Source of the DNA: Planctomycetota bacterium
GTDB lineage: Bacteria > Planctomycetota > OFTM77
DNA length: 64,000 nt
Direction of reading: 5' to 3'
Assembly: GCA_029260795.1 (NCBI GenBank)
Contig: JAJDCO010000125.1
Location: 39,866 to 103,865, forward strand
The notes under the pieces were generated by a model, which was given only the letters and a program-made list of their open reading frames with translations, was not told the origin of the DNA and did no database searches. The position numbers were made by a program, and so were the translations under genes. Below, in pieces: positions 38,783-57,022 of the stretch (positions are counted from its first letter, which is position 1; each line of letters opens with the position of its first letter).

Positions 38783-41700
38783 TCACGCTCCACCGGTCGA
38801 GATCAGCTCGGTCGATTTGCCGTCCCGCACCAATCGAGGGAGAGCCACTCCCGCTTGCCGTCGCAACGAAAGGTAGAGGTTCGAGAGCACGAATCGGAGC
38901 GCGGCGGTCCCGGCAGCGCTCTCTTGCCACGCGTCCGTTCCACCGTCGGAAGGGAGCTCGAGGACATCGGCGACGGCACCCAGCCCGGCGCTGGGATCTC
39001 CACACAGCCAGAGCGCATAGCGCGTCGCGGCCTCGTCGAGCCGGGCATAGAAAGCACGAACCTGCGCCGCGACTCGAACTTCATCGACCGTGCTCGACAA
39101 GGCGGCGAGGCTGCGGCGAACACCGGTCGGAAGGATTCGGCGAAGACGTTGCGACAAGGCCGTCACCCGATCGCTGCGGCGGCCTCCGACGCTCGCCTTA
39201 CGATCGATGTGCGCCAACGCGCGAAGGGCATCGGCTGCCCGATCGGGACCGATCCGCAGCAACGGACCGAATCCACCGAGCGGCCCCGCCAATGCTCGCG
39301 CCGCGTGGAAGATCGTCTCGGCGCTCGCCGTGCCGAGAACCAGGCGCTCCGAGGCACCGAAGATCCACGGCTCATCACAAAGCAGCCGTACCGATCGAGG
39401 TTCTTCCGAGAGTACGTGAAGCTGCACGCTACCCAGGCGGAAGGCCTGGGCGATCTCGTCGAGGCGTTTCAGCAGCGGCGAGTTGTCGCACTCGCGGACG
39501 ACTCGCTTCGGTATCGCTTCCGGGGGAAAGAGCTCGCCGAGCGTGGGGACGAGCTGAAGCAAGATCGCCGCCGCGCCGATCGCGGCATCCGGCTTGGGGT
39601 GGAGCGAGGCCGGGAATCGTCCCGTGCGAGCGAAGGGCGCTGCACTCCAGGGGCGCAGGCTGGCTCGGTAGCGCGTGCGCTCCCGAGGCGTCAGCAGCCC
39701 GAGCACGTCCCGGCAACCCTGTACCATCAGGACGCCTTCTTGATCGCCCTGACCTTGGAGCAAGGTCTCGAGCGCATTCAGGCATTCGGAGCGGGTCGGA
39801 TCGTCGTGCAGCAAGTTCCGGAACAGGCGCACGGCTTCACGAGATCCCGCATCGGTCCGACTGAGGACCGCGGCAAACTCGAGCGTCACCCGCGCATCCT
39901 CTTCGGAGTCCGCCAGCGCCTGACGGTAGATCTCCGCCGCCTCGTCGGGACGACTCAATCGCTCGGCGTACAGCCTCGCCAGCTCCAAGGAGAGGTCCAG
40001 TCGAAGTCGGCGCTTGGCGGGAGACAGATGGTCGAGATAGCTTCGCCACAGGTTGGCGAGACCTTCTTCGTCGCCCATCCCGCGGAGCGTCTTCGTGGCT
40101 TCCTCGAGGAGTGCCTCCGAGCTCGGATTCTCACCCGCGGCCTCCAACAACACCTCATAGGCTTGTTTGGGTCGGTGGCATCGGTCCCGGAGCAGGCGCG
40201 CTCGACGCAGCCGAACGGTCGTCCGCTGGCGGGGCGTGGTCGAGGACTCGACGAGCTCGGCCAGGACCTCGAGTGCCTCGTCCCATCGCTCTCGCGCTTC
40301 GAGTGCCGTGGCGAGACCGAGCCGAGCCGAGGTGCCCAGGCGCGGGTCGTCACGGACCTCACGGAAGTAGACTTCGGCATCCTCGGGACGATCGAGCCCC
40401 TTGAGGAGAACCTGGCCGAGAAGAAAGCGCGTCGTCCGAAGCTGCTCGTCACCTTGCGCGACGCTCAGCAAGCGACTCAGGTGATGCTCTGCATCTATCC
40501 AGCGGCCGTTTCGAACATAGAGGGATGCCAGGCTCTCGAGAAGATCGGCCGCATCGGGCTCCTTCTCGAGCGCCTCCCGATAGGCGCGCGCCGCCGCTTG
40601 CCAGTCGCCCTCCTGCTCGAAGAGCTCCGCACGACAGCGCTGGGCGGACAAGAGCCGCTCGACCTCCGATGGCCGACGCGCCAGCTGGCCGACCAAGCGA
40701 TCGAGATAAGGCAGGGCATCGGCCGAGTGAGCCCCTCGGCGATACAGACCTGCCACGGTCTCGAGCCCATCGATGTGCTCTGGGTGGTGCTCGAGAAGCT
40801 CGAGCCAGGTGAGCAGAGCCGTCTCCGGATGTCCTGTCTCTTCCTCGAGCTTGGCTCGGCGCGCCAAGAGGCGGACGAGATCCGAAGCGACGAGCTCGGA
40901 GCGCCGCTCGCAGAGCTCATGTCGCACGTCCTCGAGCTCACGCGCCCGATCCCGTGGGGTGCTCTTCGAGTCACTTCCCTCGGAGGGCTGCTCCGACGAC
41001 TCGGGACGAGCCGCGACCTGGGTCTCCTCGACCGCCCCGTTCTTGGGTCCCACCGCCAGCCGGTCGGTCTCGTCGGTCAGCCTTTGCAGAAGCGTCCGGG
41101 CCTCTGCACAGGCGGGGTCGTGCTTCCAGGCTTCGCGCAGTGCCTTCAATGCTTCGTCGCGCCGGTCGAGCTCGTCCGCGAGCAGGCGAGCACGGCGCGC
41201 GATCCAACGAGCCCGATCCGGACCCGCGGAGGTCTTCGCGATCCTCAATCGGAGCATCTCGGCGACCGGCTCCCACTCCTCACGGTCGGTTGCCAGCGCG
41301 ATCGAAGCGTCGAGCACGTCGACTGTCTGCGCACCGTCCGCCACCGCCTGCTGCAAGAGCTCCCACGCCTCGTCGCGCCGACTCAAGGGACCGAACAGCA
41401 CCAATCCCAGCTCGGCGCGCACGCCGGCGGCCTCCTTTGGATCATCGATCTGCTCGATCCGCCGCTCCAGTGTCGCGGCCAGCTCTTCCCAACGACGAGC
41501 GCGCCTCAGCAAATCAATCAAGGCGTCGAGCGCCGCCGTCCGGCCGGGCTCGAGCTCGAGCACACGATTCAGACAATGAGCCGCGCGATCGACGTCGTTC
41601 AGGCTAGACGACAGCTCTTCCGCCGAACGAAGAAGTCTCTCGACATCCACGGTCTCAGCGTCCGATTGCAACCGCTGCAAATCGGCGAGCTCCTCGCTGC

Positions 41701-44700
41701 ATCCGACTTGTGCGTACAGCCGCTCGAGATCTCCGACGAGCTCTTGGCGTTGGTCGGCCGGCAGGTCCTCATCGAGCACTCGGCGCAATACGCGCGCGGC
41801 CTCGATCGGCGACGAGAGATAGCGCTCGTGCACCGAGGCGATCTCACGTCCCAACGCGACTCGCTCCTCGGGCTCCAAGTCACTGAGGCGAGCCTCTTGT
41901 CGCTGGGTGAGCTCGGGCCAGTATCCCCAACGGCGATAGGCCAGCTCGAGTGAAGATGTCGCGCGACGAGATCCGAGGTCGGCAGCCCGCTCGAGCCAGG
42001 GAATGGCGTCGTGGGGCCGATGCAGGCGGTCTTGAAGCAGGCGAGCCAGGAGGAGCGCGTGGCCGGCCCGACGAGACTCGCCGTCATCATCGCGCACCAG
42101 ACCTTCGAGCACGGTCTCGGCTCGGTCGTCCAGCTCGTCTCGCAGACACGAGGCCGCCAGCTTGCGGCGGCCGACGAGGCAGTCGGGCCACTGGGCCAAC
42201 AGCCGCTCCAACATGTCGCGCGCGCGCTCACCACCCGGGCGGAGCGGGTTGAGCAGCAGCTCCTCGATCCGCTGGCGAATCTCTCCGCGCTCGGACTCGG
42301 GAAACCGCTCGAGCGCGGCCAGCAGCACTCCGAGCTGCTCCGTGCTTCGGCCCGCTCGCCCCAAGAGATCGGCAAGATCTTGGAGCGTCTCCCGTGAGTC
42401 GGGGTTCAGATCCCGGGCACAGCGCAGGCACTCGATCGCGTGACTGGGACGATCGAGATCCTCGCTCCAGAGCCGGGCCAGCTCTCGGTAGACCGTGAAC
42501 CGATCGCAAGCGGGATCGTCGGATTGGAGCCAATGCTCGAGCACGCGCACGAGATCGATTCGACGCGCGTGCTCGCGGTACAGCCGTGCTAGCGCGGTGA
42601 GGATGAGGTTCGAGCTCGGGTCGAGGTCGAGGGCGCGCTCATACGCCGAGATGGCCGCGGCCGCGTCTCCGAGGCGTTCCTCGAGAAGCCGCGCCCGCGA
42701 GACGATCACGTCGACCTCTTCGGCCCGACTGTGGGAAAGTGCTGTTCGCCTCTGGTCCAGAGTGGCGAGCTCGGTCCAACGCTCACAGCGCTCGTAGAGA
42801 TGTGCCAAGAGGTCGAGCCCATGACGATCGACAGGATCGAGGGCGCGCGCTTCCTCGAAGCATCGCAAGGCCTCTTCCGGTAGATCGAGGCGATCCGAGT
42901 AGATCTCGCCGAGGCTCAGCAGAATGGAATGCCGCTCCGCCGGGCGGAACGCTCGCGCGAGCTGAAGCTCGCGGACCTCGGCAGCAGCCGCCCAACGCGA
43001 CGCCTCGATCTGTGCGAACGCGTGGCGCTCGAGCAGGTCGGCGGCGAGGACCGTGCCGGCGGCAGCCTCGCGAAGCAGTCCGTTGGCGAGCTCCAGATCC
43101 CCGGACTCGAGGAGCAAGACCGAGAGTCGAGCTTTCCAGCGGGCACCGACCGACTCCGCTGGTTCACCTGCCAATCCCTCCTCGAGCAGTCGCCGTGCGT
43201 CGACGATCCGGTCGTGACGGTTGGCCAGCTCGATCGCTCGGTCTCGAATGTTCGCCCGATCAGGCTCCGACTCGAGGATCGACTCATAGACGCGGCCAGC
43301 CTCATTCCCACGCTTCAGACGCTCGAGCGCGCGCGCCCGAGCGAGGCGCCAGGTCGTTCGAAGCGGCGACGCTTCCTTCGGTTCATTCTCCGCCAGAAGC
43401 GTGACGAGCTCCTCCCATCGTTGTCCTTCTCGCAGGATCGCCGACAGGGATGTCATCGCGATCGGATCCGCGGGTTCCGTCTGCAGGCACTTGCGGAACC
43501 AGTGCTCCGCCAGCTCGCGCTGATCGCGGTTGCGTGAGAAGAGCTCGCCGAGCTCTCGCGCGTATCGCGCACTCCGCTCGGGATCCTCCTCGAGCTGGGC
43601 CAGGTGCGTGAGCCCCGCCGAGAGCCGCTTCCAATCTTCGATCCGTCGAGCGACTCGGACCAGCCCTCGGAGTGCGAACCGATCCTGGGGCAGGTCGGCG
43701 AGGATGTTCTGATAGGTGGAGGCGGCCGCGGCAGGATCGCGCAGCGGACCTTCGAAGAGCTGGGCTCGCTCCCCGAGGAGCTCGCGACGCGCGACCGGGT
43801 CCCGGGTCGCCTCGAGCTCGCGCTCCAAGGTCTGAGCACATTCCTTCCAGCGGACGGCTTGGCGATAGCCGCGGCGAAGCTCCCGAAGAATCGTGAGCTG
43901 GTCAGGCCATCGGTTGCGCGCCGCTTCGAGAAGCTGGAGTGCCGCCTCGGGGTCCCCGAGATGATCTCGGTGGATCTGGGCGAGCTCGAGCGCTGCGGCC
44001 GGGGAGCGCCTCGGGTCCTCTTCTCTTTCGAGGCGACGGCTGACGACGTCTGCCGCTCGCTCCCAGTCTCCGCTCGCTCGGTAGAGACGCTCCAAACCCT
44101 CGAGAATCTCGATGTCGCCTTCCCGCTCGGACCAGGCCTTCTCGAGATGCTCGATCGCGCGCTGGTTGTCGAGGAGCTCGCTCTCCCAGAGAATCGCCAT
44201 CTTCTGGTGAATCGCGGCGCGCGTGATCTCGTCGTCCGCTCGTGCGAGCTCGACCTCATAGAGCTCGAGGACACGAGGCCAATCGCGACGTTCGGCTTGC
44301 AGTCGGGCGAGCTGCTTGAGCGCTCGGGAGTCGTGAGGGGCCGCGTCCGTCAGGCAAGCGATTCCGTCTTCGGCCCGATTCAAGGGACCGAGAAGGAGCT
44401 CGCCCTTGCGACGCAGAAGCTCTGCTCGCGTCGAATCCTCCTCGACCTCGGAGAGGCGAGCTTCGAGAACGAGGAGGCTCGCGCTCGGGTCGCCCAGCTG
44501 CTCGGCCAGCTCTCCGATCTTCTCGAGCGCTTCCGAGTCCGACGGATCGCTCTTCAAGGCGAGCTGCCACATCGCCAGCGCCTCATCGGCTCGCTGCAGC
44601 GTCGTGAGAGCCTGCGCCAGACGCCGAACAGTCTTCGTACGGTGCTCCCCATTCGCCAGGCACTGGACGCCGTGCTCGAGGTGAGCGACGAGGTCTTCGA

Positions 44701-46723
44701 AACGCTCATCGTGCTCGAGGAGCTCGGCCAGGCCCTCGTGAGCCTCGGTATCGGTGGGCGCATGCTCGAGGATGCGTCGGAGACATTGCTCAGCACCCGC
44801 CCGGTCTTCATGGCGCACGAAGGCCTCAGCCGCTGCGCGCCATTCGTCGAGTGCCGCGGGATCGGACGGGTCGGGTTGACGCTCGGCAAGACCGACGAAG
44901 GCTTCGGCGACATGGTCCCACCGCTCCGCGCGCTCGGCGGATCGGCGCCAGCGATCCCATGTGCTGCGATCGCCGGGTCGCAGCTCGGTCAATCGCATCC
45001 AAGCCTCTTCTGCGATGATCGGGTCCCCGATCTCCTGCTCCGCGACCCGTGCCAGCTCCTCATAGAGAGGCTCGGGATCGGACGGCCCGGCCGCGAGCTG
45101 GATCCGAAGTGTGGTGAGGACGCCCGACCAATCGCCACCCTGCGCATCATGGCGACGCAGCCAGCTTCCGGTGGCGGAGTCGGTCGGATCGTTCTCGAGG
45201 GCCACGCGGTAGTCGCTGGCGGCAGCTTCCTCGTCCCCTTGCTCGGTCAGGATCTCGGCACGCTCGCGGAGCAACGCCGCCGCCTGTCGGGGCGCCGCTT
45301 CGGAGGCCGCTCTCTGCAGCATCTCCAGCCAGGGACTCCAATCGTCCCGGCTCTGGCAGAGACCTCGAAGGCGCTCTCGCGCAGACTCATCCGTCGGCTC
45401 GGCTGCCAGCCGGGCCATCAGGATGTCATCCTCGATCGAGGTGGCCGATTCGGTGCCTTCACCCCATTCACTCAGCGCTTCGAGAAGATCCAAAGCGGCT
45501 CTCTGATCGCCCTGCGCCGCCGCCTTCCGAGCGACCTCCTCCAGTGAGCTCCTGCGGGCGTGAGGAATCCACTCCTGAGCCAACCCGGCGATCGCGAGTG
45601 TGGCGAGGCTCGACCAGAGACCACGCTCCTGCATGCCGGCGGACACCCGCAACCAGGCCGTGTTCTGATCGTCGGAGGACTCGATCGCGTTTCGCAATCG
45701 CTCGAGGCCGACCTCCGCTTGATCGAGTCGGTCGATGAGCAGAAGGCCCAGCTTTCGGCTCAGATCGAATTGTCGCTCCGGAGAGCGCGCATAGACTTCG
45801 AGAAGCTCGCGGTAGCTCCGCTGCAGAGTGGAGTAGTCCTCTCGCGAAGCACCGCACGTCTCCAAGAGCTCGAGGGCGTCGGGAACCTGGGGATCGAGCT
45901 GCAGCGCTTGTCGAACGTCCGAGCGCGCACCGTCTGCGTTCTCGCCCTGCTCTCGCCGGCAGCGTGCTCGTCGAACGAGAAGCTCCGCTCGTCGGGCCGG
46001 AATATCTTCGGTCCGAATGCGCTCCGTGAGAAACGCCTCGAGGTCGGGCCATCGCTCTTCGGCGACCAGATCCGACTCGACCTTGCTTCGAACACCCGAC
46101 TCCAAAGGCGAGCCACTGGGGGTCGTGCGCGTGTTGCCGGCCGGCCCTCGCGACATGAGATCACGCAGCCGAGCAACGGCGGTCGCATCCGAAGACTTCA
46201 GGCACAACTTTTCGAGGAGCTCCGCATCCGAGGCCTCGGTCCCTCCCACTGCCAAGAGGTCGAACCCGATGGCGATCGCGCGATCCAGCTCGTTCAGGTG
46301 ATCACCATACAGCGAGACCAGCTCGCGTGCGGCCGGGACGGCCCGTCGAACACCCGCCTCTTCGACCTCGGTGGCGAGAAGATCCGCCAGGTCCGTCCAA
46401 CGCTCGTCCTCTCGGAAGAGATCCTTGAGCCCGGCGCGAGCCTCTTCGCAGGTCGATGGCTCCTCCAGGAGCGCGCGATACTGATCCTGGGCTCGATCGA
46501 GGCGGTGGAGCTTTGAGTGGAAGAGCTGGGCGAGCCGAAGTCGAATCGAGGCACGCTCCTTCGCGTCGCTCTCGAACAACAGACGCTTCTCGTACAGCTT
46601 GGCGAGCTGCGTCCAGTCCTTGCGGTGATGGAGCTCGTTCTCTCGATGGCGAAACGCGTTCGAGGCATCGCCGCGAGCCTCGGAGCGGCCATCTCGACCG
46701 GATCTCGTCATGTGTTGTTCCAC
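38783..46723 (-). CDS. Giant TPR-repeat protein (2646 aa) with a non-TPR C-terminal domain of ~330 aa
   Basis: One continuous ORF. TPR/Sel1-like heptad patterns (W..LA.LY......A...Y..AL) run throughout. There are two TPR super-blocks separated by an acidic linker near aa 1700. The C-terminal 330 aa (…LHPKPDAAIGAAAILLQLVPTLGELFPPEAIPKRVVRECDNSPLL…) are unrecognised. Confidence 0.7.
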   Translation of the reverse strand: MEQHMTRSGRDGRSEARGDASNAFRHRENELHHRKDWTQLAKLYEKRLLFESDAKERASIRLRLAQLFHSKLHRLDRAQDQYRALLEEPSTCEEARAGLKDLFREDERWTDLADLLATEVEEAGVRRAVPAARELVSLYGDHLNELDRAIAIGFDLLAVGGTEASDAELLEKLCLKSSDATAVARLRDLMSRGPAGNTRTTPSGSPLESGVRSKVESDLVAEERWPDLEAFLTERIRTEDIPARRAELLVRRARCRREQGENADGARSDVRQALQLDPQVPDALELLETCGASREDYSTLQRSYRELLEVYARSPERQFDLSRKLGLLLIDRLDQAEVGLERLRNAIESSDDQNTAWLRVSAGMQERGLWSSLATLAIAGLAQEWIPHARRSSLEEVARKAAAQGDQRAALDLLEALSEWGEGTESATSIEDDILMARLAAEPTDESARERLRGLCQSRDDWSPWLEMLQRAASEAAPRQAAALLRERAEILTEQGDEEAAASDYRVALENDPTDSATGSWLRRHDAQGGDWSGVLTTLRIQLAAGPSDPEPLYEELARVAEQEIGDPIIAEEAWMRLTELRPGDRSTWDRWRRSAERAERWDHVAEAFVGLAERQPDPSDPAALDEWRAAAEAFVRHEDRAGAEQCLRRILEHAPTDTEAHEGLAELLEHDERFEDLVAHLEHGVQCLANGEHRTKTVRRLAQALTTLQRADEALAMWQLALKSDPSDSEALEKIGELAEQLGDPSASLLVLEARLSEVEEDSTRAELLRRKGELLLGPLNRAEDGIACLTDAAPHDSRALKQLARLQAERRDWPRVLELYEVELARADDEITRAAIHQKMAILWESELLDNQRAIEHLEKAWSEREGDIEILEGLERLYRASGDWERAADVVSRRLEREEDPRRSPAAALELAQIHRDHLGDPEAALQLLEAARNRWPDQLTILRELRRGYRQAVRWKECAQTLERELEATRDPVARRELLGERAQLFEGPLRDPAAAASTYQNILADLPQDRFALRGLVRVARRIEDWKRLSAGLTHLAQLEEDPERSARYARELGELFSRNRDQRELAEHWFRKCLQTEPADPIAMTSLSAILREGQRWEELVTLLAENEPKEASPLRTTWRLARARALERLKRGNEAGRVYESILESEPDRANIRDRAIELANRHDRIVDARRLLEEGLAGEPAESVGARWKARLSVLLLESGDLELANGLLREAAAGTVLAADLLERHAFAQIEASRWAAAAEVRELQLARAFRPAERHSILLSLGEIYSDRLDLPEEALRCFEEARALDPVDRHGLDLLAHLYERCERWTELATLDQRRTALSHSRAEEVDVIVSRARLLEERLGDAAAAISAYERALDLDPSSNLILTALARLYREHARRIDLVRVLEHWLQSDDPACDRFTVYRELARLWSEDLDRPSHAIECLRCARDLNPDSRETLQDLADLLGRAGRSTEQLGVLLAALERFPESERGEIRQRIEELLLNPLRPGGERARDMLERLLAQWPDCLVGRRKLAASCLRDELDDRAETVLEGLVRDDDGESRRAGHALLLARLLQDRLHRPHDAIPWLERAADLGSRRATSSLELAYRRWGYWPELTQRQEARLSDLEPEERVALGREIASVHERYLSSPIEAARVLRRVLDEDLPADQRQELVGDLERLYAQVGCSEELADLQRLQSDAETVDVERLLRSAEELSSSLNDVDRAAHCLNRVLELEPGRTAALDALIDLLRRARRWEELAATLERRIEQIDDPKEAAGVRAELGLVLFGPLSRRDEAWELLQQAVADGAQTVDVLDASIALATDREEWEPVAEMLRLRIAKTSAGPDRARWIARRARLLADELDRRDEALKALREAWKHDPACAEARTLLQRLTDETDRLAVGPKNGAVEETQVAARPESSEQPSEGSDSKSTPRDRARELEDVRHELCERRSELVASDLVRLLARRAKLEEETGHPETALLTWLELLEHHPEHIDGLETVAGLYRRGAHSADALPYLDRLVGQLARRPSEVERLLSAQRCRAELFEQEGDWQAAARAYREALEKEPDAADLLESLASLYVRNGRWIDAEHHLSRLLSVAQGDEQLRTTRFLLGQVLLKGLDRPEDAEVYFREVRDDPRLGTSARLGLATALEARERWDEALEVLAELVESSTTPRQRTTVRLRRARLLRDRCHRPKQAYEVLLEAAGENPSSEALLEEATKTLRGMGDEEGLANLWRSYLDHLSPAKRRLRLDLSLELARLYAERLSRPDEAAEIYRQALADSEEDARVTLEFAAVLSRTDAGSREAVRLFRNLLHDDPTRSECLNALETLLQGQGDQEGVLMVQGCRDVLGLLTPRERTRYRASLRPWSAAPFARTGRFPASLHPKPDAAIGAAAILLQLVPTLGELFPPEAIPKRVVRECDNSPLLKRLDEIAQAFRLGSVQLHVLSEEPRSVRLLCDEPWIFGASERLVLGTASAETIFHAARALAGPLGGFGPLLRIGPDRAADALRALAHIDRKASVGGRRSDRVTALSQRLRRILPTGVRRSLAALSSTVDEVRVAAQVRAFYARLDEAATRYALWLCGDPSAGLGAVADVLELPSDGGTDAWQESAAGTAALRFVLSNLYLSLRRQAGVALPRLVRDGKSTELISTGGA

Positions 46724-46876
46724 TCGGAATCAGAGCCAGAACGGGGAGCCAGCGGAGGAGGCTGGTCGAGTCTCCCGAAGGAGTTATCGGAACGCGAATC
46801 GTTCGAACCGAAGGAGTTTCGCGGCGAGTGGTTGCCCGGAGCTTCCCAGAAAGCCTTGACTCCCCGAGCGTTACGG

Positions 46877-46906
46877 TTTGACAGCCGGTCCTCGGGTCTG
46901 CTAGCG
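46877..46906 (+). promoter_or_regulatory. Sigma70-like promoter candidate for tgt (TTGACA, 18 nt, TAGCGT)
   Basis: Read from the sequence in the 246-bp divergent intergenic region. Confidence 0.25.
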
Positions 46907-46969
46907 TCCTGCCCCGGCCGCCCCCGGTGCGGCCGGACTCGCGGATCTCCACCGACGGGCCGACCACCG

Positions 46970-48097
46970 ATGACGACCCAGACTCCATCCCTGAGCTTCT
47001 CTCTGGAAGCCACCAATACCGGCTGCAGCGCCCGAGCGGGTCGCCTCCGAACGCCCCACGGTGAGACGCTGACGCCGGTGTTCATGCCGGTCGGCACCCA
47101 CGGGGCCTTGAAAGCGCTCACGCCCCGCCAGGTCGACGAGTCGGGCGCGACCATCGTCCTCGCCAACACCTACCATCTCGCCATCCGGCCGGGTGAAGCT
47201 CTGGTCGAGAAGAGCGGTGGCCTTCATGGCTTCATGCGCTGGCCGCACACGATCCTGACCGACAGCGGCGGCTTTCAGGTCTTCAGCCTCCCGGGAACGA
47301 AGATCGACGACGACGGCGTCAAGTTCCGGTACGAGAAAGGAGGGGAGGCCGTCACGCTGACACCCGAGCGCTCCATGGAGATCCAGATGACGCTCGGAGC
47401 GGACATCATCATGGCGTTCGACGAGTGCGTTCCCTTCCCCTGCGAGCGCTCCCGGGCCGAGCGCGCGATGCATCGGACGCTCGCCTGGGCCAAGCGTTGC
47501 CAGGCCCGACACGACAAGGCGGACCAAGCGCTCTTCGGCATCGTACAGGGCAGCACCTACGAGGACCTTCGACGACAGAGCGCTCGCGACCTGGTTCGCC
47601 TCGACTTTCCCGGCTATGCGATCGGTGGCGTGAGCGTCGGTGAGGGCCTCGAGCTGCTCAAGCAAGTCGTCTCGTGGGCGGCGCCCGAGCTGCCGGAGGA
47701 TCGTCCTCGCTATCTCATGGGAGTCGGCCTTCCCGAGGACATCCTCGAATCGATCGAGCGTGGGATCGACATGTTCGACTGCGTGATCCCCACTCGCTAT
47801 GCTCGCAGCGCGACACTCTTCACCTTCCGCGGCCGCATCCGCGTCACCAATCGCCGTTATCGTCGCGACCTCTTTCCGGTCGAGCCGAACTGCAGCTGTT
47901 ACACCTGCCGCGAGTTCACCCGCGCCTACCTCCACCATCTGTTCCAGTCGGGCGAGATCCTCGGCCAGATCCTCGCCTCGATCCACAACGTATCTTTTTA
48001 TCAGATGATAATGCAGCAGGCGCGAGAGGCGATCCTCGAGAACCGCTTCCCGGAGCACAAGGCCCGCTTCCTGGAGGAGCAGGCTCGCGGTCGTTGA
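46970..48097 (+). CDS. tgt: Queuine tRNA-ribosyltransferase
   Basis: DSGGFQ catalytic motif. Zn site CSCYTC...H. 375 aa from ATG 46970; the track ORF start at 46517 is an artefactual extension. Confidence 0.9.
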   Translation: MTTQTPSLSFSLEATNTGCSARAGRLRTPHGETLTPVFMPVGTHGALKALTPRQVDESGATIVLANTYHLAIRPGEALVEKSGGLHGFMRWPHTILTDSGGFQVFSLPGTKIDDDGVKFRYEKGGEAVTLTPERSMEIQMTLGADIIMAFDECVPFPCERSRAERAMHRTLAWAKRCQARHDKADQALFGIVQGSTYEDLRRQSARDLVRLDFPGYAIGGVSVGEGLELLKQVVSWAAPELPEDRPRYLMGVGLPEDILESIERGIDMFDCVIPTRYARSATLFTFRGRIRVTNRRYRRDLFPVEPNCSCYTCREFTRAYLHHLFQSGEILGQILASIHNVSFYQMIMQQAREAILENRFPEHKARFLEEQARGR

Positions 48098-49909: not shown

Positions 49910-50500
49910 TTACCTCTTGATTGCGTAGTCTTTCAGATGGCGTTGCAGCAGCTTCTTTCCACGGTGGATGTTGATGCTCACGACGTTGGGCGTGACCCCG
50001 AGGATATCCGCGATGTCCTTACAGGCCAAGCCGTCGAAGTACCGCATCGCCAGGGCAGTGCGGTAGTTCTCCGGGAGCTTCGCCATCGCTTCCCACACGA
50101 CTCGTTTCGTCTCTTGGGTCTGGAGCGTCGGAGGAACTCCGGATTCTCCCCCACCGATTCGAGTCACCTCGACCGAACGATCGGTGACCCGACGCTCGAG
50201 CTTGAGGCGCTTGACCTTGTTGAAGGAGAGGTTCACCCCGATGCGGAACAGCCAGGAGGAGAACTTGTAGGTGGGATCGTAGAGGTGGATGGCCTTGAAC
50301 GCCCTGAGGAAGGTGTCCTGACAGATCTCCAACGTCAGATCATGGTTACGCAAGATCGAGTAGAGGATCGAGTAGAGGCGATCCTGGTACTTTACGACCA
50401 AGCGTCCGTAGGCCTCCGGGTCCCCGGTTCGGACTTCGGAAACGATCTGGACGTCTTCGGCTGCCGTCTCGCTGGGCTTTTGCTGGGCTGGCACGATCAT
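49910..50500 (-). CDS. ECF sigma factor
   Basis: Region 2 YSILRNHDLTLEICQDTFLRAFKAIHLYDP. Region 4 ALAMRYFDGLACKDIADILGVTPNVVSINIHRGKKLL. ATG at 50500. Confidence 0.75.
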   Translation of the reverse strand: MIVPAQQKPSETAAEDVQIVSEVRTGDPEAYGRLVVKYQDRLYSILYSILRNHDLTLEICQDTFLRAFKAIHLYDPTYKFSSWLFRIGVNLSFNKVKRLKLERRVTDRSVEVTRIGGGESGVPPTLQTQETKRVVWEAMAKLPENYRTALAMRYFDGLACKDIADILGVTPNVVSINIHRGKKLLQRHLKDYAIKR

Positions 50501-50737
50501 GGTCCTCGCGTTACAGGCGAGCGGACCCAGACTTTCAAGTCTCACCGGAATCAGCGACCGACTCGAGAGGGCCGAGCCTGCCGAAGCACCTGACGCCTGG
50601 TCACGGTCGCGAGAGAACCCCGCGGTTCCGGAAGCCAATAGTATAAGATGGCGGGCTTCCTCGGGGCCTTCGGGCTCTTGTAATAGGCGACGGCCTACAG
50701 CCCGACCCCGGCCTTATTCTCCAGGAAGACTCGTATC

Positions 50738-53320
50738 TTGAAGATCAAGCAGACCCCCGAAGACTTTCGGGTCATCGAGCGATCCGAGCCCCCGGTCTCC
50801 AAGACCGGATCCGGACCATACTACCTCTACGTGCTGCGGAAGAAGAAGCTCACCACGCCCGAAGCGATCCGTGAGCTGGCCCGCGCAAGTGACCTCCGGA
50901 CCGATGCCTTCGCCCACGCCGGCCTCAAGGATCGGCAAGGGGTCACAGAGCAGCTCATCTCGGTCACGGGCAAGCCGATCCGGTACGAGTCCCACCAGAT
51001 TCGCCTCAAATACCTCGGCCGATCCCGCCGGGCGGTCGAGAAAACGGACAGTCAGGGCAATCGCTTCGAGATCACACTGCGGCATCTGCGCAGGAGCGAA
51101 GCCGTGGATCTGGTCGAGGCCGCTGAGGAGGTCCGGAGCATCGGAGTCCCCAACTACTTCGACAGCCAGCGCTTCGGATGCATCCGGCACGGCCAGGGCT
51201 TCATCGCCCGACACGTCATCCAAGGCGACTTCGAAGAGGCCTTGCGGCGAATGATCGCCTCGAAGTCGCGCTTCGAGACCAAGGACGCCCAATTCAAGGG
51301 CTACCTGCGAAAGCACTGGGGAAAGTGGCGAGATCTCGCCGGACGACATCGACGCTCACTCTACAGCCGGCTCTTCAGCTACCTCGGAGACCATCCGAGC
51401 GACTTTCGCGGGGCGCTCAAGCTCGTGCCACTCGGCACCAAGCTCATTCATCTGTGTGCTTATCAGAGCTTCCTGTGGAACGAGATGCTTCGCCGTTACC
51501 TCGAGGCCGAGGGCGAATCCGGACCCGAAGTCCCCAAGGCAGCCCCCGTCGAAGCACCGAAGCCCGTGCAGGACGAAGGTCCGAAGGAGACGCTCCTCGC
51601 CGGTCCCCCTCTCGAGGACGACACACCCGACGAGAGTCCGGCCGGTTCGGAGCAGGCAGCCACGAAGCCGCCAGAGATCGAAGCCACGAAGCCCGAGCCG
51701 GCTCCTGAAAGGTGGTTGGGCACGCAGTACGAATGCGGTTGGCTGGTCTTTCCGAACAACCTGACTCGGAAGCGAGCTCTCGAGCTGCGAGAGCTCAAGC
51801 TGCCCCTGCCCGACGCACACACGCGACCGAGTGATCCGCGCATCGCGCGTGCCCTGGGGCATGCCTTGAATCACGAGGGCCTCGACCTTCGGGACCTCGA
51901 CATCCAGGACATCCCGGGATTCCTCTTCAAGGAAGAGCCGCGGCCCGCGATGCTCGTTCCCGAAGAGCTCACCGTCCGCGAGCCGGAGCCAGATGATCTG
52001 AATCGGGGGTTCTTCAAGGTCCGCTTGTCCTTCTCGCTCCCGCGTGGCGCCTACGGCTCCCTGATCCTCAAGCGTCTCCTCGCCGAGCCGGCCCCGGCCA
52101 ATCCTAAAGCGCGCGAACCCCGCGGTGCTCCCAGGGCTCAAGCCTTGCCCCCGAAGCGATGGCAGTCCGAGAGAACCCACAGCTCCAGCCGCGAGGGGCG
52201 GTCCGATGCTCGGGGAGAGCGAAGAGAGGGATACCTGGGCCCGCGCCAACGAGAGGCTTCACAAGGAATGTCGGCAGGCAGCGATCGCCGCCGAGGTCCC
52301 AGAAAACCCCACGAAGCAGCGGCGGTACACGGTGGGCGGTGGCCTGCAAACAAAGACACATTCGATCGGAACCGCCCTTCCAACAGCGACCGATCCGGGG
52401 ACGAGGACAACTTCGAAGGCTTCGAGGCTGAGGTGCGGCGCCGACCCGAGCCTGGTTGGAAGCAGCGGCGAGAAAGCAGCACTCCGAGCGGAGGCCCTGA
52501 TCGCAAACCCTCAGGGGGACACTCGGGACGCGACCGAGACCGTCGGGCAGGCGGAGATGACCACCGGAAGCCTCTGGGAGCGAGAGGAGGCCGACGCAGC
52601 GCGAGCACCGGTTGGAAGCCGCGCGATCCGACGGCGAGCAGAGATCGCAAGCCGGGCCAGGGCTACGCACGAAACACCAGCGGCGGAGGACAATCAACCG
52701 GTCGCCCGGGCGGAAGCTACGCCGGCAGTGGTCGGTCCGCCGGCAGTGGACACGCATCTGGCGGTAGGTCTGGCGGAAGCTACTCCGGCGGTGGTCGACC
52801 TGGCGGCGGTGGACATTCAGCAGGTCGACCGGGCGGAAGCTACTCCGGCGGCGGTCGACCCAGCGGCGGTGGACATTCGGCTGGTCGACCGGGCGGGAGC
52901 TACTCCGGCGGTGGTCGACCGGGCGGCGGTGGACATTCGGCTGGTCGACCGGGCGGAAGCTACTCCGGCGGTGGTCGACCGGGCGGCGGTGGACATTCGG
53001 CTGGTCGACCGGGCGGAAGCTACTCCGACGGTGGTGGAACCGGAGGTGGCAAGCCTTGGGGATCCGGCCGACCGCGCGGCGCAAATCACCCAGAGCGGGG
53101 CCGCCCCAGCGGGGGTGGTCGACCGGGAAATGCTTACTCGGCCGGCGGACGTCCCGGCGGCGGATACTCCGGCGGTGGCAAGCCGGGTGGTGCTGGCCGG
53201 CCGGCTGGAGGTCGACCCGGCGGGAACCGAGGATCTCGCCCGGCAGCCGGTCCGAATCGACGCTCGTCCCGTCCTGAGGGAGAGCGCTCCCGCGAGGCGG
53301 AGCGTGGTGGCGACTCCTGA
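50738..53320 (+). CDS. truD: tRNA pseudouridine(13) synthase TruD fused to a ~420-aa Gly/Arg/Ser-rich (GAR/RGG-like) C-terminal tail. Also carries a ~70-aa Pro/Glu-rich insertion.
   Basis: TruD signatures LKDRQGVTEQ and GVPNYFDSQRFG. The catalytic domain runs to about aa 440. The tail is low-complexity with tandem 20-aa units GGGRPGGGGHSAGRPGGSYS. Confidence 0.8.
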   Translation: MKIKQTPEDFRVIERSEPPVSKTGSGPYYLYVLRKKKLTTPEAIRELARASDLRTDAFAHAGLKDRQGVTEQLISVTGKPIRYESHQIRLKYLGRSRRAVEKTDSQGNRFEITLRHLRRSEAVDLVEAAEEVRSIGVPNYFDSQRFGCIRHGQGFIARHVIQGDFEEALRRMIASKSRFETKDAQFKGYLRKHWGKWRDLAGRHRRSLYSRLFSYLGDHPSDFRGALKLVPLGTKLIHLCAYQSFLWNEMLRRYLEAEGESGPEVPKAAPVEAPKPVQDEGPKETLLAGPPLEDDTPDESPAGSEQAATKPPEIEATKPEPAPERWLGTQYECGWLVFPNNLTRKRALELRELKLPLPDAHTRPSDPRIARALGHALNHEGLDLRDLDIQDIPGFLFKEEPRPAMLVPEELTVREPEPDDLNRGFFKVRLSFSLPRGAYGSLILKRLLAEPAPANPKAREPRGAPRAQALPPKRWQSERTHSSSREGRSDARGERREGYLGPRQREASQGMSAGSDRRRGPRKPHEAAAVHGGRWPANKDTFDRNRPSNSDRSGDEDNFEGFEAEVRRRPEPGWKQRRESSTPSGGPDRKPSGGHSGRDRDRRAGGDDHRKPLGARGGRRSASTGWKPRDPTASRDRKPGQGYARNTSGGGQSTGRPGGSYAGSGRSAGSGHASGGRSGGSYSGGGRPGGGGHSAGRPGGSYSGGGRPSGGGHSAGRPGGSYSGGGRPGGGGHSAGRPGGSYSGGGRPGGGGHSAGRPGGSYSDGGGTGGGKPWGSGRPRGANHPERGRPSGGGRPGNAYSAGGRPGGGYSGGGKPGGAGRPAGGRPGGNRGSRPAAGPNRRSSRPEGERSREAERGGDS
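52741..53040 (+). repeat. Five copies of a 60-bp in-frame tandem repeat inside the truD 3' region (degenerate copies extend upstream to ~52700)
   Basis: The unit gggcggcggtggacattcggctggtcgaccgggcggaagctactccggcggtggtcgacc lines up exactly with the 60-nt sequence lines; copies 4 and 5 are near-identical. Confidence 0.85.
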
Positions 53321-53366
53321 CGGCATTGTTCTCTCGGTGCCCTTCGGAGCACTTGCTGAAAGTCGA

Positions 53367-53395
53367 TTGACCCTCTCGCCCCCTCCGCGTATAAG
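53367..53395 (+). promoter_or_regulatory. Strong sigma70-like promoter candidate for rplC (TTGACC, 17 nt, TATAAG), giving a ~140-nt leader
   Basis: Near-consensus hexamers with optimal spacing. The leader contains the hairpin ACCGCTC-gag-GAGCGGT. Confidence 0.45.
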
Positions 53396-53539
53396 GGCGG
53401 GTCTTATCGTTCCGCATGGAGGCGGTCTTGCCCGTCTCCCGCTGCGCCTACCCGATGAATTCCCTTCACCGGCGCAAGCACGGATTGCCTTCCGACCGCT
53501 CGAGGAGCGGTGTCCTGATTCCGTCACGAAGGAACTCCC

Positions 53540-54196
53540 ATGTCCCTAGGACTGCTCGGCCGCAAACAGGGTATGACCCAGATCTTCGATGAGACTGGCG
53601 TGATCATCCCGGTCACGATCATCCAAGCCGGCCCCTGCCCCATCGTTCAGATCAAGAAGCACGAGACCGACGGCTACACGGCGCTCCAAGTCGCCTTCGA
53701 GCCGCGGCGCGCGAACATCACCAAGAAGCCCTTGGTCGGCCACTACAAGAAGGCGGGCGTGGACACCCACCGCGTTCTGCGCGAGATGCGCTTGGACGAC
53801 GATGAAGCACTCAAGGCCCACGAGAACGGCGAGCCGCTGACCGTCGACATCTTTCAAGTCGGCCAGTACGTCGACGTGACCGGCACGTCCAAGGGCCACG
53901 GCTTCACGGGTGTCATCGTGCGCCATGGCTTCCACGGAATGCGCGCGACGCACGGTACGCACGAGTTCTTCCGGCACGGTGGTTCGATCGGTATGCACTC
54001 GTGGCCGTCCCGCGTCTTCAAGGGCACCAAGATGCCCGGGCAGCACGGCAACGCTCGCGTGACGACGCAGAACCTCAAGGTCGTCAAGATCGACGCGGAG
54101 AAGAATCTGATCCTCATCAAGGGTGCCGTACCGGGCACGCGCAACGGCCTGCTGGAAATACATCCGGCCCTCAAGAAGCCGGCACTGAAGGCCTGA
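53540..54196 (+). CDS. rplC: 50S ribosomal protein L3
   Basis: Aligns along its length with E. coli L3: GMTQIF, VDVTGTSKGHGFTGV, SIGMHSWPSRVFKGTKMPGQHGN, LIKGAVPG. Confidence 0.9.
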   Translation: MSLGLLGRKQGMTQIFDETGVIIPVTIIQAGPCPIVQIKKHETDGYTALQVAFEPRRANITKKPLVGHYKKAGVDTHRVLREMRLDDDEALKAHENGEPLTVDIFQVGQYVDVTGTSKGHGFTGVIVRHGFHGMRATHGTHEFFRHGGSIGMHSWPSRVFKGTKMPGQHGNARVTTQNLKVVKIDAEKNLILIKGAVPGTRNGLLEIHPALKKPALKA

Positions 54197-54226
54197 TCAG
54201 ACTCGACGACACTCGACAAGCACGCG

Positions 54227-54264
54227 GAGGGAGCCTGGCGACGGGCTCCCTCGTTTCGTTTCGG
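54227..54264 (+). terminator. Rho-independent terminator candidate after rplC
   Basis: GAGGGAGCC-tggcgacg-GGCTCCCTC followed by GTTTCGTTTCGG. It ends 13 nt before the rlmE ATG. Confidence 0.45.
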
Positions 54265-54276
54265 AACCCCCACGCC

Positions 54277-54870
54277 ATGGCCTACGAGCTCGACGATGGA
54301 TACCGCCGGCAGGCTCGCCGCGAAGGCTACGCCGCGCGGGCGGTGTACAAGCTCGCCGAGATCCATCAGCGTTACCGCATTCTGACGCGGGGAGGCTCCG
54401 TGCTCGACCTCGGTTGTGCGCCGGGCTCCTGGCTTCAAAAGGCTCGTGAGATCGTCGGTCCGAGCGGCCAGGTCGTCGGCATCGACCTCGTGGCCGTCGA
54501 CGCCGACGCCTGCCCGGGCGCGCGACTCCATCAGGGCGACTTCTTCTCGGATGACGGGCGCACGTTCTTGGCAACGCACGGGCCCTACGAGGCCGTGTTG
54601 AGCGACATGGCCCCGAAGACGTCGGGAATCAAGTCGGCCGACCAGGCACGCTCCCTCGAGCTGTGTGAAGGTGCGTGGCTCGTCGCACAGCAGCATCTGA
54701 AACCGGGCGGTAGCTTCGTGTGCAAGATCTTCCAAGGGGCCGGATTCCCCGAGCTCCTCAAGGACGTTCGGCGGCGCTTTCGCAAGACCCACGGCTTCAA
54801 GCCGAAGAGCTCGCGCTCAGCCAGCATGGAAACCTACATCGTCGGCTTGGGGTATCAGCCCGAGAGCTGA
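54277..54870 (+). CDS. rlmE: 23S rRNA (uridine2552-2'-O)-methyltransferase RlmE (FtsJ)
   Basis: SAM motif VLDLGCAPGSW. K-D-K-E catalytic residues including SDMAPK. 197 aa. Confidence 0.85.
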   Translation: MAYELDDGYRRQARREGYAARAVYKLAEIHQRYRILTRGGSVLDLGCAPGSWLQKAREIVGPSGQVVGIDLVAVDADACPGARLHQGDFFSDDGRTFLATHGPYEAVLSDMAPKTSGIKSADQARSLELCEGAWLVAQQHLKPGGSFVCKIFQGAGFPELLKDVRRRFRKTHGFKPKSSRSASMETYIVGLGYQPES

Positions 54871-54879
54871 GCTCGGAAC

Positions 54880-56622
54880 GTGAGGTTCCCGTTGTCGGTG
54901 GCCGGCCGTCCGAATACGATCGCGAAACGGGACGAGGATTCGAATCGGTCCAGGAGCGAAGTGGTGCGGCTCTTCAAGAAGATCCTGTTGTCGGTCCTCT
55001 TTACGGTCGGCTTCTTCGCGGCGGTCGAAACCGCCTTGTTCTTCGTCGGCGTCGGCGAGAGCTGGAGCCCGTTCGAGCAAGAGCGCGACTCGGAAGGCTC
55101 GTGGGTCGCCAAGCTCGCCCCTCGAGGCGCCTTTCACTTCCACTCCGAACGCTTCCCCGTCGACAAGCCGAGCGATACCTTTCGCGTATTCACCTTCGGC
55201 GGGTCGTCGACATACGGTTACCCGTTCAGCCGCGCACATTCCCGCAGCTCGTTCTCCGGCATGCTCCGCGTCCTGCTGACCGAGCGCTATCCCCAGCGAC
55301 GCATCGAGGTCATCAACTGCGGCTCGCCGGGCATGGACAGCCGCGCCAGCCTCGAGATCTTGCACGCGGCGTTGGACTACTCGCCCGACGCGCTCGTCGT
55401 GTACTCGGGTCACAACGAGTTCCTCCCCCAGAACGTCACGCTCACTCGCCGGGCACTCGAGCAGCCCCTCTGGAATGGCGTGCTCGAGTTTGCGGGCTCG
55501 CTGCGCTTGTTCGGGTTGCTCCGCTCCGCCATCACGCCGAAGCTGCCCCAGCGCGAAGAGGTCACGTTCAACGACCTCGTCCAATACGATCAAATGATCG
55601 GTCCGCCACTTTGCGGTCCCGACGAGACGAAGGCCGTCCTCACCGGATACCGACAGAACCTTACCGCCATGGCCGAAGCGGCGACCGTGCCGCTCTTCTT
55701 CTGCCTGCCCGCCTCCAACCTCGCCGACATGGAGCCGAACGTCTCCACGCACAGCACCGATCTCGATCCTCGCCTCATGATCCGCTTCGACGAGGCCTTC
55801 AGCGAAGGGCGTGCGAAGGCGGCTCAGGAAGACTGGAGCAGCGCGATCGAGGCCTTCAAGAAGGCCAATCGGGCCGACCCGAATGTCGCCGAGTCGCACT
55901 ACCAGCTCGGTCGCGCTCTCGAGGCGGCGGGCGAGTTCTCTCGTGCCCGGGCCGAGTACTTGCGCGCGCGCGACCTCGATGGCCGCCCGCTGCGAGCCAC
56001 GGCGGCCATCCTCGAGATCGTCGAGACCGTCGCGCGCGAGCAATCCCGCGTCACCCGGATCGACACGATGTCCGGCCTGACCGCCGCGGCGCCGAACGGC
56101 TTGATCGGCAACGGACAGATCATCGACAACGTCCACCCGACTCTCGAAGGCGACTACGTGCTCGCGCGGCAGATCGCCGACGCGCTCGGAGCCGCCGGTC
56201 TACCGGCTGGCGCTCGTTCGGAGCGTCCCGATCCCGACTTCGCCGAGTGCCTGCGCAAGACGGGGTCGCGGCCCGAGCTCGTGACGGAAGGGCTCGCCGA
56301 GGCTGGCCTCTACCTGCTGCGATTCGTACCGATGCGCTACGACCGGGCGCGTCGAGCCGCCCGCACCGAGGAGGTCTTCCAGCAGGTGCTGGCCGAGAAG
56401 CCCGACAACTTTCGTGCGCTGCACGGCCTCGCCACGCTCTACCTGATGGTCGGTCGCACGGACGAGGCCAAGACGATCCTCGACAGCACCCTCGAGAAGC
56501 AGCCCGCCTCAGCGGCGCTGCTCGTGCACTTCGCCAAGCTCTCGCCCTACTTGACTCGCCTCTACCAAGAAGCGGGGCTCGACCTCGAAGCGCTGAAGGC
56601 GAAGATCCCCAAGACTCAGTGA
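54880..56622 (+). CDS. Membrane-anchored SGNH/GDSL-family hydrolase or acyltransferase with C-terminal TPR region (paralog 2)
   Basis: FRVFTFGGSSTYGYPF, VYSGHNEF, IDNVHPTLEGDY. C-terminal TPR. Paralog of 2905..4461. Confidence 0.6.
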   Translation: MRFPLSVAGRPNTIAKRDEDSNRSRSEVVRLFKKILLSVLFTVGFFAAVETALFFVGVGESWSPFEQERDSEGSWVAKLAPRGAFHFHSERFPVDKPSDTFRVFTFGGSSTYGYPFSRAHSRSSFSGMLRVLLTERYPQRRIEVINCGSPGMDSRASLEILHAALDYSPDALVVYSGHNEFLPQNVTLTRRALEQPLWNGVLEFAGSLRLFGLLRSAITPKLPQREEVTFNDLVQYDQMIGPPLCGPDETKAVLTGYRQNLTAMAEAATVPLFFCLPASNLADMEPNVSTHSTDLDPRLMIRFDEAFSEGRAKAAQEDWSSAIEAFKKANRADPNVAESHYQLGRALEAAGEFSRARAEYLRARDLDGRPLRATAAILEIVETVAREQSRVTRIDTMSGLTAAAPNGLIGNGQIIDNVHPTLEGDYVLARQIADALGAAGLPAGARSERPDPDFAECLRKTGSRPELVTEGLAEAGLYLLRFVPMRYDRARRAARTEEVFQQVLAEKPDNFRALHGLATLYLMVGRTDEAKTILDSTLEKQPASAALLVHFAKLSPYLTRLYQEAGLDLEALKAKIPKTQ

Positions 56623-56691
56623 AGCCCGAGGCGCCGACGCTCCCGGACGTCGACGCCCTCCAAAGCGTCCTCAGTGATCGTCGGAGGCGAT

Positions 56692-56745
56692 GAGTGATCT
56701 TCCCCCGTTCTCGTGGACACCTTGGTCATGCCGCGAACACGGCGA
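56692..56745. repeat. Copy B of the dispersed 54-bp repeat (GAGTGATCTTCCCCCGTTCTCGTGGACACCTTGGTCATGCCGCGAACACGGCGA)
   Basis: Three mismatches to copy A. It contains the stop codon of the truncated beta-lactamase-family ORF. Confidence 0.6.
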
Positions 56746-57022
56746 TCGTCATCGGCTTCGTCACCGAGGCGATGCTGAAGCGGGTGCTCGGTGCATTCGG
56801 CACACCGAGCTCGTAGCTCGCCATGCCGTAGGACCTCTCGAAGAGCACCTCGTTGCCTTTTGCGAGAAGCACGGTGCCGGAGAGATGGCCCGCGTCAGCG
56901 TATGGCTTCAGGTAGGCATGGATTCTCTCGGCAACATCCGGCGACGCGTCTTCGGCCTCTTGAGCGAGGATCGGTAGGGACGGGAGCAGAAGCGCAACCA
57001 GAGCGATCAGGCATCGAGTCAT
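56726..57022 (-). pseudogene. Truncated beta-lactamase / PBP4-family serine hydrolase N-terminal fragment (98 aa of an expected ~350-400)
   Basis: Signal peptide MTRCLIALVALLLPSLPILA, then GTVLLAKGNEVLFERSYGMASYELGVPNAPSTRFSIASVTKPMT (the S-x-x-K active-site helix). The frame terminates inside the repeat, and no continuation exists downstream in any frame. Confidence 0.5.

Follow-up and report, generated by a model that had tools for sequence, protein, structure and literature searches.

We analysed a 64,000-nucleotide stretch of a genome assembly labelled as a Planctomycetota bacterium (GenBank GCA_029260795.1, contig JAJDCO010000125.1), called the window below, and in it the gene rplC, which encodes ribosomal protein uL3 (L3). 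Our results suggest that this rplC is most likely the genome's single copy, moved out of the S10 operon, and that this is far likelier than a second, paralogous copy. The explanation we favour combines a relocated single rplC, its own promoter, a conserved leader that serves as a control element and a leaky terminator, and we give this whole picture a probability of about 0.6. The features that the first-pass annotation had described at the locus are all real and lie where it had placed them. The gene order is ordinary for a wider group of bacteria and only the leader is new. The conservation of the unit was assessed by comparison with the corresponding locus (L002) of a sister metagenome-assembled genome (MAG), and the parts of the unit are as follows.

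53367-53395, forward strand: promoter-like site, -35 TTGACC (53367-53372), 17-nt spacer and -10 TATAAG (53390-53395), from the match to consensus
53396-53450, forward strand: conserved 5' block of the leader with the inferred start near 53402, P1 and the 5' strand of P2, from identity to L002
53418-53425 and 53432-53439, forward strand: hairpin P1, GGAGGCGG and CCGTCTCC, predicted fold
53441-53448 and 53471-53479, forward strand: 5' strand and 3' strand (GGCGCAAGC) of P2, predicted fold
53451-53525, forward strand: variable middle and 3' part of the leader with the P2 3' strand and hairpin P3, 36-62% identity to L002
53495-53511, forward strand: hairpin P3, ACCGCTC-GAG-GAGCGGT, predicted fold
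53526-53539, forward strand: Shine-Dalgarno (SD) region ACGAAGGAACTCCC, from identity to L002
53540-54196, forward strand: rplC, ribosomal protein uL3, 218 aa, from TIGR03625 L3_bact and PF00297
54227-54262, forward strand: terminator-like hairpin of 11 bp (54227-54252) and interrupted T-tract GTTTCGTTTC, from a terminator scan

The gene itself leaves little room for doubt. Its open reading frame (ORF) scores 270.8 bits against TIGR03625, where the cutoff is 142.9, with residues 4-207 of 218 matched, and 64.8 bits against PF00297. A hidden Markov model (HMM) built from the L3 proteins of canonical S10 operons gives it 302 bits, compared to 303 for a canonical PVC-group L3. The G+C content at third codon positions is 0.86, the joint highest among the plausible genes of the window (tied with the ORF 54880-56622), which is consistent with high expression. 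A full-length, bona fide L3 gene alone between truD and rlmE, as had been proposed, is what we find. The surroundings expected of an S10 operon, with rpsJ upstream and rplD downstream, are missing here. Searching the 64 kb with tblastn and E. coli queries gave no match for S10, L4, L23, L2, S19, EF-Tu, L24, S14, L14 or L5, which bears out the description of this rplC as lying outside any S10-operon context.

How unusual this is can be judged from other genomes. We retrieved 80 genome loci with the window L3 and found the canonical S10-L3-L4-L23-L2 context in 49 of them, while the rest carry no S10-operon gene within about 6 kb. The detached loci are mostly labelled Myxococcota or Myxococcales, and all loci with these labels in the sample are detached, none canonical. 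The three best inspectable L3 matches outside the sister MAG are also detached; one belongs to a MAG with the label Eisenbacteria and the other two to unnamed lineages, with a convergent rlmE in one of these two. For the comparison of the two contexts we used 36 non-redundant detached loci, with rplC but neither S10 nor L4 within about 6 kb (Myxococcota and other lineages), and the 49 canonical ones. In 16 of the 36 detached loci rlmE follows on the same strand at no more than 174 nt, in one more it is adjacent and convergent, and in 6 further loci it is found within 6 kb; it is near canonical rplC in none of 49. The same division is seen for promoters in the 260 nt upstream of rplC with 10 or more of the 12 consensus positions matched (12/36 detached, 0/49 canonical). 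An arrangement special to this genome, as the first reading of the DNA implied, is therefore not what we see, since a detached rplC, often with rlmE next, is the rule in Myxococcota-type lineages and is found in several others.

The Myxococcota-type loci resemble the window in having rplC outside the S10 operon, an own promoter of the form TTGAC-N17-TATAnT and rlmE as the next gene. They differ in three respects. Leaders of the Myxococcaceae type are about 30 nt long, compared to about 138 nt in the window; most Myxococcota-type loci have 21-82 nt between rplC and rlmE, whereas the window has an 80-nt spacer with a terminator hairpin; and truD is found upstream of rplC only in the lineage of the window.

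If rplC has moved in these lineages, their S10 operons should be without it. In metagenomes we looked for the L4 peptide PWRQKGTGR at a distance of 358-388 nt behind the S10 peptide IPLPT. This distance is possible only without an intervening L3 gene, so the pattern reports L3-less operons. It was found in 85 stretches, and all 80 metagenome loci retrieved (L089-L168) have the order EF-Tu-S10-L4-L23-L2-S19 with no L3. The L4 proteins of these loci fall into two clades, one of which has Myxococcota or Myxococcales as its nearest named relatives. Contigs of two MAGs with such labels (L174-L177) show a longer order, S12-S7-EF-G-EF-Tu-S10-L4-L23-L2-S19-L22-S3-L16-L29-S17-L14-L5-S8-L6. We additionally noticed that L14 stands directly before L5 in this Myxococcota clade, so that rplX (L24) and rpsN (S14) are also gone from the spc cluster; the second, unnamed clade of L3-less operons retains L24 and S14. 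L3 and L24 are the two assembly-initiator proteins of the 50S subunit. Because the lineages with a detached rplC have S10 operons that lack it, the detachment points to relocation of a single gene and not to duplication. The relocation is most likely an old rearrangement that many lineages share, Myxococcota among them, and the S10 operons of the best-sampled ones run S10-L4-L23 without L3. The first-pass annotation had left the choice between a dispersed organisation of ribosomal protein genes and a second paralog; the L3-less operons of other lineages leave the latter unlikely. The detachment of rplC, with or without rlmE, together with an S10-L4 operon is documented here, and we found no paper that describes this arrangement, the linkage of rplC and rlmE or an L3 leader.

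The gene appears to have a promoter of its own. The promoter-like site begins 173 nt ahead of the rplC start codon and matches the sigma-70 consensus at 10 of 12 positions, with a G+C-rich discriminator, GGCGGG, directly after the -10 hexamer. It is the sole site with at least 10/12 matches on either strand of the window, for which a first-order Markov model leads us to expect 0.6, and the chance of such a site on the right strand of the 220-nt intergenic region is about 0.001. At the sister locus the site reads TTGACC-17-TAAAAG and stands in the same register to the conserved leader; its -35 hexamer is identical and overlaps the truD stop codon. The near-consensus promoter reported about 170 nt upstream is thus unique in the window and is kept in the relative. 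By these comparisons it is a putative private sigma-70-type promoter of rplC, conserved in the closest relative. A strict promoter scan omits the site, since position 6 of the -10 hexamer is G and not T.

The relative deserves a closer description, because all statements on leader conservation are measured against it alone. In a search of 5.8 billion proteins a single L3 came close to that of the window (P0002, 78% identity; the next matches reach at most 60%), and it is from the MAG GCA_040219065.1, labelled Planctomycetota by NCBI. The homolog searches with L3 and with the tRNA-guanine transglycosylase TGT agree in giving one relative at 78-82% identity and thereafter at most 67%. The gene order in L002 is ECF sigma, anti-sigma, truD, rplC and then a convergent tgt. 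The adjacency of truD and rplC is kept, along with the -35 hexamer, the spacing, the leader and the position of the terminator. The block of tgt and a giant TPR gene (2646 aa) follows rplC on its 3' side in L002 and is inverted beyond the anti-sigma gene in the window (38783-48097 in the window, 6807-16134 in L002). The breakpoint of this rearrangement falls directly after the rplC terminator, so that truD-rplC behaves as one module.

The leader, about 138 nt long from the inferred start near 53402, is conserved very unevenly between the two genomes. In the 5' block 52 of 60 positions are identical (87%), and from the SD region to the ATG 16 of 17 (94%). The middle falls to 62% and the P3 region to 36%. 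For comparison, the three codon positions of rplC are identical at 84%, 88% and 68%, and the remaining intergenic stretches at 24-54%. As the 5' block and the SD region exceed both third codon positions and intergenic DNA, the first 55 nt or so of the leader and the SD region appear to be under purifying selection. The conservation does not seem to come from a coding sequence: a leader peptide starting at ATG 53416 was considered and rejected, as it has no SD, matches L002 for 13 codons only and then diverges, and an indel breaks its frame.

The predicted folds are partly shared. P1 (GGAGGCGG/CCGUCUCC) is predicted in both genomes with 8 bp, and both substitutions sit in its loop. P2 (GCUGCGCC/GGCGCAAGC) is also predicted in both, with a different bulged base. 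The stem ACCGCTC/GAGCGGT noticed at first is present in the leader, at 53495-53511, as our P3; its counterpart in L002 is a different hairpin, GGGACGCT/AGCGTTCC. In each genome a hairpin lies 15-25 nt ahead of the SD, and the two sequences are unrelated. RNAalifold pairs ACGAAGGA on the SD side with the leader 5' end TCTTATCGT (53402-53410), the extreme 5' end in this pairing being UCUUAUCGU.

We searched for the leader elsewhere with little return. The P1 hairpin pattern CCGCATGGAGGCGGTNTNGCCCGTCTCC was absent from the metagenome scan, and a second copy was absent from the window at up to 3 mismatches. The covariance models of Rfam 15 gave no match in the window at gathering score. The leader is without a match even at E<=10, where the only two weak matches both fall on the terminator hairpin. 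The idea of an uncharacterised leader element therefore holds in that it is conserved beyond the neutral level and matches no described RNA family; the word "structured" that came with it is without statistical support.

In other lineages a detached rplC has conserved, structured leaders of its own that lie against the SD, and these offer a better view of what such elements may look like. A first set, group A, is found at six loci.

L011:5932-5996, L021:3063-3127, L022:5936-6000, L033:5923-5996, L043:5933-5997 and L074:5936-6000: group A leader motif

The motif reads GCAUCGACCGCGAYGA, a covarying hairpin with the loop AYGGA, and UCCAAUCCGGACGAGGAG. Its outer helix is invariant, and the 3' strand of this helix abuts the SD. 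The inner stem covaries, with 9 cells changed on both sides, which was matched by 1 of 500 shuffles, and 89% of its cells are paired, compared to 24-50% in slid controls. A covariance model of the group (R1) scores the six loci at 68-94 bits, and all else stays at 20 or below. We asked whether the window leader belongs here, and it does not, as R1 matches neither the window nor L002; from its sequence it is a separate, lineage-specific candidate. Two further groups carry other motifs upstream of rplC. Group C (L014, L040, L058, L064, L070) has CGUAC, a hairpin of the form GA..UC and CAAUGCGAGG, and group B (L018, L026, L052, L065) has GCUUC-CAAUGC, a hairpin and GUAC-GAAGC. According to independent minimum free energy folds, both groups form one internal loop (C opposite CAA, with closing pairs GA/UC and UA/UG), and the two topologies in which it occurs are circular permutations of each other. 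Circular permutation of an internal-loop motif, as here, typically points to an RNA that binds a protein. Rfam had no match to the leaders of these lineages either (11 related loci, gathering score and E<=10). A likeness of the GUACGA and UCCAAUG motifs to 23S rRNA near 2570 and 2655 was noticed by eye only, and we do not rely on it. The picture across lineages shows what looks like recurrent, dedicated leader control of stand-alone rplC. These leaders make RNA control of a stand-alone rplC plausible in general, and for the window it is unproven.

With this background we propose the following explanation. Transcription would start near 53402 from the sigma-70-type promoter, and the G+C-rich discriminator may link this promoter to growth-rate control. 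The mRNA would carry the leader of about 138 nt. The conserved leader would act as post-transcriptional control that replaces the dosage control lost when the gene left the operon, and the likeliest ligand would be free L3, which would affect the initiation of translation near the SD. Behind the gene, the hairpin with its weak T-tract would end most transcripts and so attenuate rlmE, and a fraction probably reads through.

Known ribosomal protein leaders show how far this can be compared with other systems. The leader of the E. coli S10 operon is alike as an mRNA leader that tunes ribosomal protein synthesis and controls rplC among other genes. It is unlike the window leader in that its regulator is L4, and the window has an rplC without rpsJ or rplD nearby and a leader without an Rfam match. 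The starting assumption that L4-mediated leader control is the norm for rplC cannot serve as a general baseline, since the L4-mediated S10 leader is, according to PMC3616713, largely confined to Gammaproteobacteria. Other parallels are the leaders of rpsO (S15), rpmE (L31) and rplQ (L17), where a stand-alone gene likewise comes with its own promoter and with a conserved 5' untranslated region extending to the SD, and where a terminator follows, in the window a putative one. The rpmE and rplQ leaders are also alike in the narrow phylogenetic range of each (PMC7247131). The difference is that structure and L3 binding are only proposed for the window leader, and that neither the catalogue of ribosomal protein leaders by Eckert & Weinberg 2020 (PMC7247131) nor an Rfam 15 match provides a leader with L3 as ligand. 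An L3-responsive leader is, on sequence grounds, a reasonable if unproven candidate for a new ribosomal protein leader. The L3-binding step taken by itself we regard as possible and rather unlikely. A more far-reaching version holds that the leader is an L3-binding autoregulatory RNA, the first ribosomal protein leader with uL3 as ligand and one of several independently evolved L3 leaders, including the circularly permuted Myxococcota-type motif, and that these leaders arose when L3 left the S10-spc cluster and required a dosage control of its own, possibly in coordination with RlmE. This version is speculative, and we hold it to be somewhat less likely still than the bare binding step at its best.

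Several observations weigh against parts of our explanation. The T at position 6 of the -10 hexamer, usually invariant, is replaced by G in both genomes. The folding energies of the leader are ordinary, with z about -1.1. The accessibility of the SD equals that of shuffled controls, and its main predicted partner differs between the two genomes. The databases searched contain only two leader sequences of this type, in which RNAalifold finds 3 of 33 pairs changed on both sides, and these are located in the poorly aligned P3 and include some G-U pairs. The stems of P1 and P2 are invariant between the two sequences, the difference in P3 depends on the alignment, and with a single relative a covariation analysis of the leader is impossible. 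When both leaders were aligned locally with the 23S rRNA of E. coli, the similarities were no better than those of shuffles. The claim of a structured element is thus not upheld by energy or by covariation, and the sequence conservation alone is solid. The T-tract GTTTCGTTTC is poor and interrupted. Lastly, a second rplC would formally be possible, as the S10 operons of this genome and of the sister MAG are out of view. As a side observation, the leader segment UCCGCAUGGAGGCGGUCUUG (53415-53434) matches nt 2148-2168 of E. coli 23S rRNA at 16 of 20 positions; this too is no better than shuffles, and we treat it as chance.

The alternative that survives best accepts the relocation and the promoter and takes the conserved block as something other than an L3 sensor, for instance a promoter-proximal DNA operator, an element of the initially transcribed region for growth-rate or stringent control, or a stem-loop at the 5' end that stabilises the mRNA. 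It would explain why conservation starts right at the -10 hexamer and the G+C-rich discriminator, why energy, covariation and rRNA mimicry give no signal, and why the middle of the leader diverges freely. However, the conserved block reaches about 50 nt into the transcript and its 8-bp hairpin is unaltered between the two genomes except in the loop, and other detached lineages have RNA-level motifs in this place, with covarying stems and circular permutation. We consider this alternative unlikely on balance, though worth keeping in mind.

A second alternative concerns the origin of the gene. In a xenologous displacement, rplC would have arrived at a new locus by horizontal transfer, with a Myxococcota-like donor, and the native copy in the operon would then have been lost. 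In a rough neighbour-joining tree of this short protein, the L3 of the window clusters with Myxococcota-type detached L3, apart from a PVC-group L3 of canonical context, which is unexpected for a lineage whose sister MAG is labelled Planctomycetota, and the rplC-rlmE pair is common to the window and Myxococcota. The nearest named relatives of the window TGT, however, are Geobacterales/Desulfuromonadales (64-67% identity) and not Planctomycetota. A second gene thus also falls nearest to "delta" lineages, and the organism or its label may belong near those. The taxonomic placement of the MAG lineage is uncertain, and the roughness of the L3 tree also speaks against building on it. We therefore consider horizontal transfer improbable.

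The last alternative, a separately regulated second L3 paralog with the canonical rplC still in the S10 operon, could draw on the 64 kb, out of a 118-kb contig, to which our view of this genome extends and on detached L3 scoring somewhat below the training-set members of the canonical-context HMM, and we judge it marginally the least probable of all, because of the analogy with other lineages, where L3-less S10 operons are numerous (MAGs labelled Myxococcota or Myxococcales included) and the loci so labelled in the 80-locus sample are all detached, and because this is a codon-optimised, full-length uL3 that reaches nearly twice the TIGR03625 equivalog cutoff and scores practically as a canonical PVC-group L3 does; Myxococcales phylogenomics, moreover, routinely takes rplC as a conserved housekeeping marker.

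Returning to the rplC of the window, its downstream end may be less sharply defined than its promoter. The hairpin at 54227-54252 has the most pairs (11) among the seven terminator-like sites in 50000-57000, and its folding z is -2.2. L002 has a post-stop hairpin of other sequence in the same place, with a better T-tract and z of -4.15. The rplC-rlmE spacer is 80 nt long (54197-54276), and rlmE starts 25 nt past the hairpin. We take this hairpin for a leaky terminator or attenuator between rplC and rlmE and not for a hard stop of the unit. The rplC unit is probably not strictly monocistronic, because rlmE follows a hairpin with a weak T-tract at such a short distance, and because the rplC-rlmE gap is 21-82 nt in most Myxococcota loci where rlmE comes after rplC. 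Of the proposed terminator after the stop codon, the G+C-rich hairpin and its position, kept in L002, are confirmed; with the weak T-tract the isolation of the unit becomes doubtful.

The two neighbours of the unit were assigned from Pfam.

50738-53320, forward strand: truD, tRNA pseudouridine-13 synthase, upstream neighbour, Pfam TruD 196.8 bits
54277-54870, forward strand: rlmE, 23S rRNA U2552 2'-O-methyltransferase, downstream neighbour, Pfam FtsJ 169.3 bits

The rlmE product stays under the cutoff of the NCBIfam RlmE equivalog models (170.4 against 300.15, and 156 against 269). TruD has a C-terminal tail of about 500 aa, rich in Gly, Arg, Ser and Pro and of low complexity, encoded in the 3' half of the gene (51800-53320). 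Part of it is a tandem repeat at 52680-53043 with six copies of 60 nt (20 aa), GGRPGGGGHSAGRPGGSYSG. The TruD of the sister MAG is likewise extended (774 aa), and the DNA identity of the tail is only 42%. For tgt (46517-48097), the longest ORF has 526 aa with the TGT domain from residue 170, and the database protein has 375 aa, so that a true start near 46970 is probable.

Few gene orders in bacteria are as conserved as that of the S10-spc cluster, and 50S assembly in vitro is started by two proteins, of which L3 is one. The removal of rplC from this cluster can therefore be seen as a natural experiment in ribosomal protein stoichiometry without operon coupling. In the lineages concerned, rplC has a promoter to itself, in several of them also a conserved structured leader, and it often stands beside rlmE, the gene of a late-assembly 23S methyltransferase. 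For the window alone the result is modest, its leader being a two-sequence candidate. Should these leaders prove to bind L3, the catalogue of ribosomal protein feedback RNAs would gain a missing member.

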